The notes under the pieces: model-generated | What the model was told of the DNA's origin: nothing | What the model saw: only the letters and a program-made list of their open reading frames with translations | The model's database searches: none | Part shown: positions 520 through 52,579 of the stretch, piece by piece | Position numbering within the stretch: position 1 is the stretch's first letter | How the letters are laid out: every line of letters begins with the position of its first letter | Assembly: GCF_050920415.1 (NCBI RefSeq) | Contig: NZ_CP169309.1 | Strand: one strand, 5' to 3' | Source: Escherichia coli | GTDB taxonomy: Bacteria > Pseudomonadota > Gammaproteobacteria > Enterobacterales > Enterobacteriaceae | Length of the DNA: 64,000 nt | Made by a program: the position numbers and the translations under genes

Positions 520-1857
520 ATGTCTTCGGATGCTGATGCTCACAAAGTGGGCTTAATCCCCGTCACCCTGATGGTGTCGGGGAATATTATGGGGTCAGGT
601 GTTTTTCTGTTACCTGCAAACCTGGCCTCCACTGGCGGGATTGCCATTTATGGATGGTTGGTGACGATTATCGGTGCGCTGGGGCTCTCGATGGTATACG
701 CCAAAATGTCGTTCCTCGACCCAAGTCCTGGTGGTTCTTACGCTTACGCCCGCCGCTGCTTTGGCCCGTTTCTCGGTTATCAAACCAACGTCCTCTACTG
801 GCTGGCCTGCTGGATCGGCAATATCGCCATGGTGGTCATTGGCGTTGGATATTTAAGTTACTTCTTCCCGATTCTGAAAGATCCACTGGTATTAACCATC
901 ACCTGCGTCGTGGTGCTGTGGATCTTCGTCCTGCTGAACATTGTCGGTCCGAAAATGATCACCCGCGTGCAGGCCGTTGCCACCGTGCTGGCGCTGATCC
1001 CCATCGTCGGGATTGCCGTATTTGGCTGGTTCTGGTTCCGTGGTGAAACCTATATGGCGGCATGGAACGTCAGCGGCCTGGGCACCTTCGGCGCGATTCA
1101 AAGTACCCTTAACGTTACGCTGTGGTCGTTCATCGGTGTGGAAAGTGCCTCCGTTGCCGCAGGTGTGGTGAAAAACCCGAAACGCAACGTCCCTATCGCC
1201 ACCATTGGTGGGGTATTGATTGCCGCCGTTTGCTATGTGCTCTCCACCACCGCGATTATGGGGATGATCCCTAATGCCGCACTGCGCGTTTCTGCCTCGC
1301 CATTCGGTGATGCCGCACGGATGGCGTTGGGTGACACCGCCGGGGCCATTGTTTCCTTCTGCGCAGCTGCGGGTTGCTTAGGTTCACTGGGCGGCTGGAC
1401 GTTGCTGGCGGGTCAAACGGCGAAAGCCGCTGCCGATGACGGACTGTTCCCACCGATTTTTGCCCGTGTAAATAAAGCGGGTACGCCAGTGGCAGGGCTG
1501 ATTATCGTCGGTATTTTGATGACCATCTTCCAGCTCAGTAGCATTTCGCCAAACGCGACTAAAGAGTTCGGTCTGGTTTCTTCCGTGTCGGTCATCTTTA
1601 CACTGGTGCCATATCTTTACACCTGTGCGGCGTTACTGCTGCTCGGCCACGGCCACTTTGGTAAAGCACGCCCTGCATATCTGGCTGTTACTACCATTGC
1701 CTTCCTCTACTGCATCTGGGCCGTAGTAGGGTCCGGCGCGAAAGAGGTTATGTGGTCATTTGTCACCCTGATGGTCATCACCGCCATGTATGCGCTGAAT
1801 TACAACCGGCTGCATAAAAACCCGTATCCCTTAGATGCACCAATAAGCAAAGATTAA
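520..1857 (+). CDS. adiC: Arginine:agmatine antiporter (APC family)
   Basis: 445-aa polytopic membrane protein; N-terminus [27 protein letters not shown] recognised as AdiC; synteny with adiY. Confidence 0.93.
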
Positions 1858-4278: not shown

Positions 4279-5370
4279 ATGCGTTTTCTGCGCCGACCAA
4301 TATCGCTGCGCCAACGGCTGATATTGACCATTGGGGCCATTTTGTTGGTGTTTGAGTTGATCAGCGTCTTCTGGCTATGGCATGAAAGTACCGAGCAGAT
4401 TCAGCTGTTTGAGCAGGCGCTACGCGACAATCGTAACAACGATCGCCACATCATGCGTGAGATCCGCGAGGCGGTCGCCAGCCTGATTGTCCCTGGCGTC
4501 TTTATGGTCAGCCTGACGCTATTTATCTGCTATCAGGCGGTACGCCGCATCACCCGCCCGCTGGCGGAGCTGCAAAAAGAGCTGGAAGCGCGCACCGCCG
4601 ACAACTTAACGCCCATTGCCATTCACAGCGCCACCCTCGAAATCGAAGCGGTGGTTTCAGCGTTAAACGATCTGGTCAGTCGCCTGACCAACACGCTGGA
4701 TAACGAAAGGTTGTTTACCGCTGACGTCGCGCACGAACTGCGAACGCCACTGGCGGGGGTGCGTTTGCATCTGGAACTGCTGGCGAAAACGCATCACATT
4801 GATGTAGCACCGTTAGTGGCACGACTTGATCAGATGATGGAGAGTGTCTCCCAGCTACTGCAACTGGCGCGTGCCGGACAGTCATTTTCTTCCGGTAATT
4901 ATCAACATGTAAAACTGCTGGAAGATGTCATTCTCCCCTCGTATGACGAACTCAGTACCATGCTCGACCAGCGCCAGCAAACCCTGCTATTGCCAGAGAG
5001 CGCCGCCGACATCATCGTTCAGGGTGATGCAACCCTGCTGCGGATGTTATTGCGAAACCTGGTAGAAAATGCCCATCGTTACAGCCCGCAAGGCAGCAAC
5101 ATTATGATTAAGCTGCAAGACGATGGCGGAGCGGTCATGGCCGTTGAAGATGAAGGACCGGGTATTGATGAGAGTAAATGCGGGGAGTTGAGTAAAGCGT
5201 TTGTACGAATGGACAGCCGTTATGGCGGGATTGGTCTGGGGTTAAGTATTGTCAGCCGCATTACACAGTTGCATCACGGGCAGTTTTTCCTGCAAAACCG
5301 GCAAGAGACTTCCGGCACGCGGGCCTGGGTACGGCTGAAGAAAGATCAGTACGTGGCAAACCAGATATAA
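4279..5370 (+). CDS. basS: Sensor histidine kinase BasS (PmrB)
   Basis: 363 aa from the first ATG (track ORF begins at an upstream TTG); H-box ADVAHELRTPLAG and ATPase motifs; follows basR. Confidence 0.9.
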   Translation: MRFLRRPISLRQRLILTIGAILLVFELISVFWLWHESTEQIQLFEQALRDNRNNDRHIMREIREAVASLIVPGVFMVSLTLFICYQAVRRITRPLAELQKELEARTADNLTPIAIHSATLEIEAVVSALNDLVSRLTNTLDNERLFTADVAHELRTPLAGVRLHLELLAKTHHIDVAPLVARLDQMMESVSQLLQLARAGQSFSSGNYQHVKLLEDVILPSYDELSTMLDQRQQTLLLPESAADIIVQGDATLLRMLLRNLVENAHRYSPQGSNIMIKLQDDGGAVMAVEDEGPGIDESKCGELSKAFVRMDSRYGGIGLGLSIVSRITQLHHGQFFLQNRQETSGTRAWVRLKKDQYVANQI

Positions 5371-5435
5371 AGAAAGCTGCTGACCACCAGCACGCTGAAC
5401 ACGGTAGTTAAACTTTCATAAACACGGTTTTTCAT
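5346..5435 (-). CDS. pmrR: Small membrane protein PmrR (29 aa), convergent with and overlapping the 3' end of basS
   Basis: Minus-strand ORF atgaaaaaccgtgtttatgaaagtttaactaccgtg...tggtttgccacgtactga translates to MKNRVYESLTTVFSVLVVSSFLYIWFATY; below the 60-aa cutoff of the ORF track; its 3' end overlaps the last codons of basS. Confidence 0.75.
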   Translation of the reverse strand: MKNRVYESLTTVFSVLVVSSFLYIWFATY

Positions 5436-5439
5436 TGCA

Positions 5440-5465
5440 CTCTCCTCCGTTAACCTGGAGGAGAG
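5440..5465. terminator. Hairpin between basS/pmrR and proP (possible terminator for the eptA-basRS transcript)
   Basis: Inverted repeat ctctcctcc-N8-ggaggagag; no strong T-tract follows, so the function is uncertain. Confidence 0.3.
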
Positions 5466-5479
5466 TATGCGTGTCAGAG

Positions 5480-5496
5480 ATTAAGTGAACCTTAAG
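5480..5496 (-). promoter_or_regulatory. Candidate BasR (PmrA) box for pmrR
   Basis: Minus-strand reading CTTAAG-GTTCA-CTTAAT, about 45-60 nt upstream of the pmrR start codon. Confidence 0.5.
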
Positions 5497-5548
5497 AGTC
5501 AATTGTTGGCCTGATGAGACAGCATCCCATCAGGCAATTCGTTTCAGC

Positions 5549-11187: not shown

Positions 11188-11335
11188 CGGTAGGCCGGAT
11201 AAGGCGCTCGCGCCGCATCCGGCTACGGTGCCGACTGCCTGATGCGACGCTCGCGCGTCTTATCAGGCCTACAAATTCTCGCACCATCCGGCAACGGTGC
11301 CTAATGCGACGCTTACCGAGTCTTATCAGCCCCCG
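11188..11335. repeat. REP/BIME cluster (about 3 REP palindromes)
   Basis: Repeated taggccggataaggcg...cgccgcatccggc and gcctgatgcgacgc...gtcttatcaggcctac units between yjdM and yjdN. Confidence 0.75.
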
Positions 11336-31105: not shown

Positions 31106-33253
31106 ATGAAAAAAGTCGTCACGGTTTGCCCCTATTGCGCATCAGGTTGCAAAATCAACCTGGTCGTCGATAACGGCAAAATCGTCCGGGCGGAGGCAGC
31201 GCAGGGGAAAACCAACCAGGGTACCCTGTGTCTGAAGGGTTATTATGGCTGGGACTTCATTAACGATACCCAGATCCTGACCCCGCGCCTGAAAACCCCC
31301 ATGATCCGTCGCCAGCGTGGCGGCAAACTCGAACCTGTTTCCTGGGATGAGGCACTGAATTACGTTGCCGAGCGCCTGAGCGCCATCAAAGAGAAGTACG
31401 GTCCGGATGCCATCCAGACGACCGGCTCCTCGCGTGGTACGGGTAACGAAACCAACTATGTAATGCAAAAATTTGCGCGCGCCGTTATTGGTACCAATAA
31501 CGTTGACTGCTGCGCTCGTGTCTGACACGGCCCATCGGTTGCAGGTCTGCACCAATCGGTCGGTAATGGCGCAATGAGCAATGCTATTAACGAAATTGAT
31601 AATACCGATTTAGTGTTCGTTTTCGGGTACAACCCGGCGGATTCCCACCCTATCGTGGCGAATCACGTAATTAACGCTAAACGTAACGGGGCGAAAATTA
31701 TCGTCTGCGATCCGCGCAAAATTGAAACCGCGCGCATTGCTGACATGCACATTGCACTGAAAAACGGCTCGAATATCGCGCTGTTGAATGCGATGGGCCA
31801 TGTCATTATTGAAGAAAATCTGTACGACAAAGCGTTCGTCGCTTCCCGTACAGAAGGCTTTGAAGAGTATCGTAAAATCGTTGAAGGCTACACGCCGGAG
31901 TCGGTTGAAGATATCACCGGCGTTAGCGCCAGTGAGATTCGTCAGGCAGCGCGGATGTATGCCCAGGCGGAAAGCGCAGCCATTCTGTGGGGCATGGGTG
32001 TTACCCAGTTCTATCAGGGCGTGGAAACCGTACGTTCTCTGACCAGCCTCGCGATGCTGACCGGTAACCTCGGTAAGCCGCATGCGGGGGTAAACCCAGT
32101 TCGTGGTCAAAACAACGTGCAGGGGGCCTGCGATATGGGCGCGCTGCCAGATACTTACCCTGGCTACCAGTACGTGAAAGATCCGGCTAACCGCGAGAAA
32201 TTCGCCAAAGCCTGGGGCGTAGAGAGCCTGCCTGCACATACCGGTTATCGCATCAGCGAGCTACCGCATCGCGCAGCGCATGGCGAAGTGCGCGCCGCGT
32301 ACATTATGGGCGAGGATCCGCTGCAAACGGATGCGGAACTGTCGGCAGTACGTAAAGCTTTTGAAGATCTGGAACTGGTCATCGTTCAGGACATCTTTAT
32401 GACCAAAACCGCGTCGGCGGCGGATGTCATTTTACCGTCAACGTCGTGGGGCGAGCATGAAGGCGTGTTTACTGCGGCTGACCGTGGCTTCCAGCGTTTC
32501 TTCAAAGCAGTTGAACCGAAATGGGATCTGAAAACGGACTGGCAGATTATCAGTGAAATCGCCACCCGTATGGGTTATCCGATGCACTACAACAACACCC
32601 AGGAGATCTGGGATGAGTTGCGTCATCTGTGCCCGGATTTCTACGGTGCGACTTACGAGAAAATGGGCGAACTGGGCTTCATTCAGTGGCCTTGCCGCGA
32701 TACTTCAGATGCCGATCAGGGGACTTCTTATCTGTTTAAAGAGAAGTTTGATACTCCGAACGGTCTGGCGCAGTTCTTCACCTGCGACTGGGTAGCGCCA
32801 ATCGACAAACTCACCGACGAGTATCCGATGGTACTGTCAACGGTGCGTGAAGTCGGTCACTACTCTTGCCGTTCGATGACCGGTAACTGTGCGGCACTGG
32901 CGGCGCTGGCTGATGAACCAGGCTACGCACAAATCAATACCGAAGACGCCAAACGTCTGGGTATTGAAGATGAGGCATTGGTTTGGGTGCACTCGCGTAA
33001 AGGCAAAATTATCACCCGTGCGCAGGTCAGCGATCGTCCGAACAAAGGGGCGATTTACATGACCTACCAGTGGTGGATTGGTGCCTGTAACGAGCTGGTT
33101 ACCGAAAACTTAAGCCCGATTACGAAAACGCCGGAATACAAATACTGCGCCGTGCGCGTCGAGCCGATCGCCGATCAGCGCGCCGCCGAGCAGTACGTGA
33201 TTGACGAGTACAACAAGTTGAAAACTCGCCTGCGCGAAGCGGCACTGGCGTAA
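31106..33253 (+). CDS. fdhF: Formate dehydrogenase H (selenocysteine-containing molybdoenzyme); in-frame TGA at 31523..31525 decoded as Sec
   Basis: Track ORFs 31106..31525 and 31574..33253 are in the same frame, separated only by one TGA (codon 140); N-terminal Cys cluster CPYCASGCKINLVV; 715 aa total. Confidence 0.93.
31523..31570 (+). other. SECIS stem-loop directing Sec insertion at the fdhF UGA
   Basis: tgacacggcccatcggttgcaggtctgcaccaatcggtcggtaatggc immediately 3' of the UGA, matching the fdhF SECIS as recalled. Confidence 0.85.
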
Positions 33254-34037: not shown

Positions 34038-34222
34038 GTAGGCCTGATAAGGCGCGCCAAGCGTCGCATCAGGCATTGATGTCGGATGCGGCGTAAACGC
34101 CTTATCCGACCTACAAAATCACCCTAAATCAAGCTATTGCGCAGTCTGGCGTAGGCCTGATAAGACGCGGCAAGCGTCGCATCAGGCATCCACACATTGC
34201 CGGGTGTATGTCCCCGGCAATC
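34038..34222. repeat. REP/BIME cluster
   Basis: Several gcctgataaggcgc...gcgtcgcatcaggc and gtcggatgcggcgtaaacgccttatccgacctac units between yjcO and gltP. Confidence 0.75.
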
Positions 34223-44614: not shown

Positions 44615-44740
44615 TTGCCGGATGCGATCCGGGCAACAAGTCGGAAACGATTTGTAGGCCTGATAAGACGCGACAGCGTCGCATCAGGCATTGATTGCCG
44701 GATGCGGCGTATAACGCCTTATCCGGCCTACATAAGGCAA
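44615..44740. repeat. REP/BIME cluster
   Basis: ttgccggatgcg..., gtaggcctgataagacgcgacagcgtcgcatcaggc and gccggatgcggcgtataacgccttatccggcctac units between acs and yjcH. Confidence 0.75.
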
Positions 44741-50219: not shown

Positions 50220-51569
50220 TTAGATAGCCCAGCCGCCCGCATAGAAGGTCACCAGCGCCACGGCGATAACGACCGTACCGATGTTCAACTTGCGCCATTC
50301 GCCGGAAACCAGACGACCAATCACCAGAGTCGCGAAGCCGATCATGATGCCTGTTACGATGTTACAGGTCAGCACGATGAATACCGCCGTAACCAGACCC
50401 GCCATCGCATCAACAAAATCAGCAAAGTCGATTTTCGCCACGTTGCTCAGCATCAGCAGGCCCACGTACATCAGCGCCGGAGCCGTTGCGTACCCAGGAA
50501 CGAGGTAAGAGAGTGGAGAGAGGAACAGAATCAGCAGGAACAACACGCCAACGGTGATAGCCGTCAGACCGGTTTTTCCGCCCGCCGCTGTACCCGCCGC
50601 AGACTCGATGTATACCGCTGCCGGTGCTGCCCCCACCAGACCAGAGAAAACACTGCTCATGGAGTCGGTGGTCAGTGCTTTCCCGCCGTCGATAATTTGC
50701 CCGTCTTTATCCAGCAGGTTTGCCTGGCCCGCGACGGCCCGGATGGTTCCGGTGGCATCGAAAACAGCAGTCATCACCAGTGCCAGCACGCTCGGCAGAA
50801 CCACAGGGTTCAGCGCGCCCATAATGTCCAGGCTGCCAATCAGTGAATTGCCGTTTTCATCGCTCAATGAAGGCATGGCGAAAACGCCAGAGAAGTGGAC
50901 GTTAGGATCGAAGATCAAACCGACAATTGAGATACCGATAATGGTCAGCAGAATGCCACCGGGGACTTTCAGTTTTTCCAGGCCAATGATCACAGCCAGA
51001 CCTACCAGTGACATAATCACCGGGAAGGTCGCGAAATCACCCAGCGCAACAGGCAGACCATCAAGCGGGTTTTTAATCACCAGACCGACACCATTAGCAG
51101 CAATCAGCAGCAGGAACAGACCGATACCGATCCCCGTGCCGTGCGCCACACCGTGCGGCAAGTTGCGCAAAATCCAGCTACGGATACCCGTGGCAGAAAT
51201 TATCGTAAACAGCACACCCATCAGGAACACGGCACCCAGCGCGACAGGTACGCTAATATGTTGCCCCAGTACCAGGCTGAATGCGGTAAACGCCGTCAGG
51301 GAGATAGCGCAACCAATCGCCAGCGGCAGATTAGCCCACAACCCCATCACGATAGAACCGAGTCCGGCAACCAGACAGGTCGCAACGAAAACTGCCGCAG
51401 GCGGAAAGCCCGCTTTACCCAACATGCCTGGAACGACGATAACCGAGTAGACCATCGCCAGAAACGTTGTTAACCCGGCAACCACTTCCTGACGGACAGA
51501 GCTTCCACGTTGTGAAATTTTAAACCAGGCGTCGAGTGAACCGCCGGTACGCGCTGATGGCGTAGACAT
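50220..51569 (-). CDS. ghxP: Guanine/hypoxanthine permease (NCS2/AzgA family)
   Basis: 449 aa; polytopic; recognised as YjcD/GhxP. Confidence 0.9.
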
Positions 51570-51946
51570 AAGAAAACATCCCCTGAGAGTTTAATTTTCG
51601 TCAAGATGCGTGGCGGACATTCCCCTGCCAGCGAAACGTTATCTTCCTGTTCCAGGTTTGCGACAATTTGGTGCGTCGCAAAAAAGCAAACGTTTAGCTC
51701 CGCGCATACAAAACGGGTGGTAAAAAAAGCAAACGATTATCCGGCGATCATAGCGGCTTTTTCAACCGAAGTTTGCTGCTTTTTTCTCTTTTATGGTCTT
51801 GACGATGAAAAACCAGGCAATTGATGCGCAAACGTTATCGTCGATGCGCAAGATTGCAGCGTTATCGAGCCGCATACCGTTCAGGATTGCGATAAAAAAT
51901 CGTCTGAGATGACAAAAATATTGCGGCTAAAAAGTATACTTTTACA

Positions 51947-51974
51947 CTGACGAAGAAACGCCGGTGACATACAA
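51947..51974 (+). promoter_or_regulatory. Candidate sigma70 promoter for the ryjA sRNA
   Basis: -35 ctgacg, 16-bp spacer, -10 tacaat, placing a start about 140 nt upstream of the terminator at 52093..52121. Confidence 0.45.
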
Positions 51975-51981
51975 TTAAAGC

Positions 51982-52121
51982 ATCAACACCAACCGGAACC
52001 TCCACCACGTGCTCGAATGAGGTGTGTTGACGTCGGGGGAAACCCTCCTGTGTACCAGCGGGATAGAGAGAAAGACAAAGACCGGAAAACAAACTAAAGC
52101 GCCCTTGTGGCGCTTTAGTTT
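51982..52121 (+). ncRNA. ryjA: Small RNA RyjA (about 140 nt), convergent with and overlapping the 3' end of soxR
   Basis: Intrinsic terminator ctaaagcgcc-cttgt-ggcgctttag plus ttttgtt ends a few nt inside the soxR stop region; promoter-like elements about 140 nt upstream; position matches RyjA as recalled (soxR-ghxP spacer). Confidence 0.5.
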
Positions 52122-52579
52122 TGTTCATCTTCCAGCAAGCGTGCGCCTGTGCCTTCTTCTCCTAAGCGGTCGCCCGGGTTACGCAATGGGCAATCACTGC
52201 GCGAAAGGCAGCCACAACCAATACATCCGTCCAGTTCGTCACGCAGCGCCACTAAGGTATGAATGCGCCGATCCAACTCTTCTCGCCATTGGGACGAAAG
52301 CTGTTTCCACTCTTTCGCACTTAATGTATGCCCTTCGGGCAACACGCCAAACGCTTCACGAATGGTCGCCAGCGGAATGCCAATACGCTGAGCAATTTTG
52401 ATGATTGCGACATATCGCAACACATCACGTTTATATCGCCGCTGATTGCCACTATTACGAATACTGCTAATCAACCCTTTGCTTTCATAGAAATGCAGCG
52501 CCGATACCGCCACACCGCTGCGTTTTGCCACTTCGCCGGGGGTTAGCAGCGCTTTAATGCGGGGTAATTTCTTTTCCAT
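52115..52579 (-). CDS. soxR: Redox-sensing MerR-family regulator SoxR ([2Fe-2S])
   Basis: 154 aa; MerR HTH; C-terminal cluster [17 protein letters not shown]. Confidence 0.95.

Follow-up and report, generated by a model that had tools for sequence, protein, structure and literature searches.

The gap between ghxP and soxR in the Escherichia coli DNA analyzed here (a stretch of 64,000 nucleotides, hereafter the window) most probably encodes RyjA, also known as SraL, a regulatory RNA of 141 nt that acts in trans and is found in Enterobacteriaceae, and to which expression, protein partners and targets would be assigned by homology; we put the probability of this reading at about 97%. In an Rfam scan of the complete window, the family sraL (RF01408, “sraL Hfq binding RNA”) was placed at 51982 to 52122 of the plus strand with 153.3 bits, E = 1.1e-34 and positions 1-142 of the 142-position model. 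This match far exceeds chance, runs over the full length of the model and lies above the curated gathering score of 39 bits. In the genome of E. coli K-12 MG1655 (NC_000913.3), the ncRNA gene ryjA (b4459) is annotated at 4277926..4278066, convergent with soxR (4277469..4277933) with an overlap of 8 nt, and ghxP is its neighbor on the side opposite soxR. All 141 nt of the window RNA are identical to those of K-12 ryjA (141/141), and the only mismatches, two in number, precede the RNA start. By every criterion that a sequence allows, the window RNA is the same gene as b4459 and a member of the RyjA/SraL family. It is an already known RNA, and nothing new is present in the interval. SraL/RyjA, which accumulates in stationary phase, was discovered in E. 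coli in 2001 and functional studies have been made since. The features to which we refer are the following.

51947 to 51952, plus strand: -35 element CTGACG (conserved form CTGGCR), from the promoter scan, its position kept in 53 orthologous promoters

51970 to 51980, plus strand: -10 element TACAAT (51970-51975) with a TAAAG discriminator, A/T-rich as is usual in sigma-S promoters, from the promoter scan

51982 to 52122, plus strand: RyjA/SraL small RNA, 141 nt with a 5′ A, from Rfam RF01408 and identity to K-12 b4459

51983 to 52030, plus strand: 5′ domain, a helix of UCAACAC (51983-51989) with GUGUUGA (52024-52030) that holds the conserved ACCGGAACCUCC, from the Rfam structure and the minimum-free-energy fold

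52006 to 52015, plus strand: CACGUGCUCG (RNA nucleotides 25-34), complement of the tig leader by 7 + 3 bp with a one-base bulge, from the complementarity search

Within 52035 to 52063, plus strand: central hairpins GGG/CCC (52035-52037 with 52043-52045) and UCCUGU/GCGGGA (52046-52051 with 52058-52063), from the RNAalifold consensus

52064 to 52090, plus strand: purine-rich, highly conserved UAGAGAGAAAGACAAAGACCGGAAAAC, single-stranded except for a 3-bp closing helix at GAC (52074-52076), from the alignment

52091 to 52122, plus strand: intrinsic terminator of RyjA with a 13-bp stem, CUUGU loop and U-tail, from the terminator scan and the fold

52086 to 52118, minus strand: reverse reading of the terminator hairpin, with UUUGUUUU (complement of 52086-52093) behind it, the putative soxR terminator, from the fold and the sequence

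52115 to 52122, both strands: overlap of the RyjA 3′ end with the soxR frame, 8 nt (stop codon plus 5 nt), from the open reading frame table, the Rfam coordinates and the K-12 annotation

The open reading frame table places ghxP at 50220..51569 and soxR at 52115..52579, both on the minus strand, with a gap of 545 bp between them (51570..52114). The preliminary description had proposed a short non-coding, RyjA-like transcript on the plus strand of this 545-bp gap that runs toward soxR and overlaps the 3′ end of that gene, had matched it to the position of RyjA and had named an Rfam scan as a check. That proposal is borne out by the full-length sraL match, by the annotation of b4459 at the equivalent place in K-12, convergent with soxR and sharing the same 8 nt with it, and by the 100% identity of the two RNAs. 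In length, promoter architecture and terminator, the RNA is like K-12 ryjA and Salmonella SraL, and it shares with K-12 ryjA the position between ghxP and soxR together with the 8-nt overlap; it differs from K-12 ryjA by two substitutions in the promoter region, one of which turns a G of the conserved -35 element into A. Of 5426 complete E. coli genomes, 5420 contain a 631-bp region around the gene, and strain MFDS1022581 matches the window over it with 100% identity. In that genome and in the other nine of the ten best matches, the automatic RefSeq annotation under the match consists of soxR alone and does not list the sRNA.

For comparison we used 53 orthologous loci obtained by an exact-pattern scan with one genome per species, where ACCGGAACCTCC and CGGGGGAAACCC formed the search pattern and are thus invariant by construction. 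According to the record titles, the genera are Escherichia, Salmonella, Citrobacter, Enterobacter, Klebsiella, Raoultella, Leclercia, Lelliottia, Cedecea, Atlantibacter, Trabulsiella, Pluralibacter, Pseudocitrobacter and similar; two loci labeled otherwise (a “Bacillota” MAG and a “Chryseobacterium”) show the same soxR and ghxP context. soxR is convergent with the sRNA in 52 of the 53 loci. Among them 48 sequences are distinct, and their alignment spans 140-150 nt with a mean column identity of 83%.

Transcription of the plus strand would start at A51982 from a sigma-S-type promoter formed by the elements at 51947-51952 and 51970-51975, the same elements that Silva et al. described as sigma-S-type in 2013 (PMC3753932). 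The ctgacg/tacaat pair had been located correctly in the preliminary description, with a spacer given as 16 bp that proves to be 17 bp in the promoter scan. The start position lies 7 nt past the -10 hexamer, which is the canonical distance, and the RNA has been reported to begin with A (PMC12956327). Over the 53 loci, the consensus reads TA[C/G]A[A/C]T followed by TAAAG at -10 and CTGGC[A/G] at -35. The fourth base of the -35 element is G in 52 loci and A only in the window (position 51950); K-12 and E. coli 2013C-4282 carry CTGGCG. The exact 66-nt promoter sequence of the window occurs in 1 of the 5426 complete E. coli genomes, and the nearest genomes differ from it at precisely this -35 base. 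As far as these genomes tell, CTGACG is a strain-private G-to-A variant, one step nearer to TTGACA of the sigma-70 consensus, and the change at 51950 may alter the strength of the promoter or its sigma-factor selectivity.

The consensus fold of the 48 distinct orthologues consists of the 5′ stem, two central hairpins, the 3-bp closing helix and the terminator. Standard pairs fill 98.6% of the structure cells, and eight pairs have changed on both sides: four in the 5′ stem, three in the second central hairpin and one in the terminator, which is otherwise invariant among the orthologues. None of 500 column shuffles matched the observed pairing and covariation, and when the 3′ partners were slid by 1-3 columns, only 35-56% of the cells remained paired. 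The segment 52064-52090 is near-invariant although it lies outside the search pattern, and it may serve for protein binding or for pairing. The plus-strand terminator that had been noticed at the outset is present, with its 13-bp stem, CTTGT loop and T-rich tail. The terminator scan reports it at 52091..52121 with 6 G-C pairs in the stem and a 5-nt loop, and the hairpin folds at -20.1 kcal/mol with z = -6.3 relative to dinucleotide shuffles.

That said, consensus scans do not by themselves establish a gene here, since their yield is at chance level: the region holds 2 promoter-like sites where 1.2 are expected and 2 terminator-like sites where 1.8 are expected. These figures would suit a locus without any functional RNA, in which the hairpin is a mere soxR terminator and the two hexamers are a chance promoter-like match. 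What decides against such a locus is that the 141 nt match a curated covariance model with 153 bits, that the interior of the RNA is conserved with compensatory changes over many genera and its promoter is conserved as well, and that published Northern blots detect the RNA in E. coli and Salmonella (PMC3753932, PMC12956327, PMC5389530). We regard the combination of a chance promoter and a soxR terminator as ruled out by the conservation, the covariation and these blots, and assign it practically no probability.

The transcript could also be imagined as a small mRNA, because an ATG-initiated open reading frame of 26 amino acids, MRCVDVGGNPPVYQRDREKDKDRKTN, lies entirely within the RNA at 52017..52097. 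However, the position of the ATG is occupied by CTG or ACG in most genera, the frame is interrupted by single-base insertions and deletions (alignment columns 45, 84, 106 and 116-120), no Shine-Dalgarno sequence precedes it, and the substitutions track the pairing of the helices and not codon positions. For lack of a conserved start codon and of an uninterrupted frame, we reject the coding reading, whose chance of being true is vanishingly small, and retain that of a non-coding RyjA.

The 3′ end of RyjA is closely interwoven with soxR. The stop codon of soxR (52115-52117) sits within the 3′ arm of the hairpin, and folding of the minus strand gives -30.4 kcal/mol with z = -5.2; as the hairpin is followed there by UUUGUUUU, it has the form of a bidirectional terminator. 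Read from the other strand, the RyjA terminator at 52091-52122 would also end the convergent soxR transcript. In Salmonella, Viegas et al. reported in 2007 that the SraL terminator overlaps that of soxR (PMC2190706). Bidirectional intrinsic terminators likewise place one palindromic G+C-rich hairpin between an A-tract and a T-tract and end both transcripts with it. The present case differs from those between convergent genes, as one of the two transcripts is a regulatory RNA and the stop codon of the protein gene lies inside the hairpin arm.

Given this arrangement, RyjA might act as a cis-antisense RNA on soxR, besides or instead of acting in trans, with the two 3′ ends forming a duplex that is cut by RNase III or destabilizes the message; the preliminary description had suggested antisense effects on the stability of soxR mRNA. 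If true, SoxR levels would thereby be coupled to stationary phase. The two genes have the terminator in common, sharing 8 nt within the soxR frame, and if soxR mRNA ends at the U-tract the complementarity would extend over about 33-37 nt, all of it in the hairpin. A larger SraL species builds up in the absence of RNase III, for which a cut in the shared terminator was offered by the authors as speculation (PMC2190706). In 32 of the 53 species, the T-run of the sRNA reaches 1-10 nt into the soxR stop codon or coding sequence, and in six more it is 1-10 nt away from the stop codon; in the remaining 15, however, the two are 11-509 nt apart and the sRNA is equally conserved. The overlap is therefore not kept wherever the RNA is kept, being absent from about a quarter of the species. 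Nor does complementarity extend outside self-structured regions: the overlap is the terminator hairpin, with 8 nt in coding sequence, and this palindrome is already tied up in each of the RNAs in a very stable hairpin of its own (-20 and -30 kcal/mol), whereas the best-conserved parts of RyjA lie outside it. In Citrobacter sedlakii NBRC 105722, the sraL gene is intact at a locus with neither soxR nor soxS downstream. No effect of SraL/RyjA on soxR was reported in any paper found in the literature searched. Because the sRNA is conserved independently of the overlap, we argue against cis-antisense control of soxR as the function for which it is conserved, and we consider such control unlikely.

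A related proposal is an interplay of RyjA and soxR through the shared terminator or through transcriptional collision, by which RpoS-driven RyjA transcription would lower or reshape soxR expression in stationary phase, to a degree altered by the private -35 base. We hold this to be slightly more doubtful still; if true, the SoxRS switch for oxidative stress would be tied to the general stress response.

Several further observations were made on the surroundings of the gene. In the C. sedlakii locus (L024, 698..1742), an open reading frame for a 303-aa LysR-type protein (698..1609, plus strand) converges on sraL and ends (...PAKN, stop TAA) in the sraL terminator arm, with a codon arrangement like that of the E. 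coli soxR end. Between 83 and 509 nt separate the sraL terminator from the soxR stop codon in several species (loci L015, L020, L025, L043, L031 and L055), and some of these inserts resemble REP-type palindromes, for example GCCGGGTGGCG...CTTACCCGGCCTAC in L015 and L020. On the other side, the spacing between the starts of ghxP and sraL, for which 51570-51981 of the window was compared with loci L005, L011, L016, L042 and others, amounts to 413-455 nt for Escherichia and for some Citrobacter and to about 1090-1330 nt for most other genera. The longer spacing points to one extra gene there that is missing from the E. coli arrangement; in Salmonella the extra gene at this locus is reported to be a putative glutathione S-transferase, STM4267 (PMC3753932). 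Upstream of the purine transporter gene ghxP, a PurR-operator-like site, GCGCAAACGTTATCGT, lies at 51826-51841 and matches ACGCAAACGTTTGCGT at 13 of 16 positions. In a search for PurR boxes as an explanation of the repeated GCAAACG motifs upstream of ghxP, this was the only site with at most 3 mismatches; by eye, three more GC[A/G]AAACG[A/T]T motifs can be seen in the same intergenic region at 51633, 51686 and 51729. For ghxP itself, the promoter scan predicts a sigma-70-like promoter on the minus strand at 51765..51736.

The Rfam scan also returned matches elsewhere in the window. STnc630 (RF02052), an enterobacterial sRNA, is matched at full length at 5339-5504 of the minus strand with 181.6 bits, and naRNA4 (RF02564), which represents REP-type extragenic palindromes, is matched three times, at 11193-11269 (plus strand), 34041-34111 (minus strand) and 44657-44728 (minus strand). 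SECIS_2 (RF01988) is matched at 31518-31572 of the plus strand with 87.1 bits, which points to a selenocysteine insertion element within a selenoprotein gene, probably that of formate dehydrogenase.

For the window strain, the expression of RyjA, its dependence on RpoS, its protein partners and its regulation of targets would carry over from published work on close relatives. By homology with Salmonella and K-12, RyjA would accumulate in stationary phase under RpoS: in Salmonella, loss of rpoS lowers SraL about 500-fold, the SraL promoter fusion is RpoS-dependent and the promoter is enriched more than 100-fold in RpoS ChIP (PMC3753932). The RNA would be bound and stabilized by Hfq and ProQ and degraded after polyadenylation by PAP I. 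SraL stability drops without Hfq (PMC3753932), and SraL is a ProQ-associated RNA (PMC6315103); in Salmonella it is polyadenylated and strongly stabilized in the absence of PAP I (PMC2190706), and ryjA is among the most up-regulated transcripts of an E. coli pcnB mutant (PMC5389530).

Two targets in trans are documented. RyjA would repress the mRNA of tig (trigger factor) through limited pairing just upstream of the ribosome-binding site, as SraL does in Salmonella with 7 + 3 bp just upstream of the Shine-Dalgarno sequence, which compensatory mutations have proven (PMC3753932). In a search for contiguous Watson-Crick stretches, GUGCUCG of the window RNA pairs with CGAGCAC at -29..-23 of K-12 tig, and the adjacent CAC pairs with GUG (CGAGCAC-U-GUG, -29..-19); the nucleotides 52006-52015 would correspond to the published tig pairing site. 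Their intactness is demonstrated here alongside the identity, structure, conservation and synteny of the RNA. Conservation of the segment does not extend to Klebsiella and Raoultella, and consequently tig may not be the ancestral target. RyjA would also raise the level of full-length rho mRNA, with pairing to the rho leader blocking premature Rho-dependent termination, as reviews relate for SraL from the work of Silva et al. in 2019 (PMC6582626, PMC12360218). A simple search for Watson-Crick stretches gave no long contiguous complementarity between the sRNA and the K-12 rho leader. Unrestricted RNAduplex runs returned long, meaningless duplexes that were no better than those of shuffled sequences, both for tig (-65.4 vs. 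-63.4 ± 5.6 for the shuffles) and for rho (-62.1 vs. -66.7 ± 5.1). The demonstrations of tig regulation (PMC3753932) and, according to the reviews, of rho regulation (PMC6582626, PMC12360218) were made in Salmonella and not in E. coli.

With these properties, RyjA would join a group of enterobacterial sRNAs. SdsR and GadY are RpoS-dependent, Hfq-binding members of that group, induced by sigma-S in stationary phase and acting in trans by short imperfect pairing. GadY overlaps the 3′ end of its neighbor gadX, and there the overlap is the functional target site. The 3′ overlap of RyjA/SraL with soxR is unlike that of GadY with gadX in this respect: no effect on soxR is documented, and the known targets tig and rho lie elsewhere in the genome. 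The RpoS dependence and short pairing of SraL, for which we draw on PMC3753932, are what we liken to SdsR and GadY.

For the annotation of E. coli genomes, recognizing RyjA at this locus has little significance beyond correctness, and it keeps the ghxP-soxR gap from passing as empty or as the site of a new gene.
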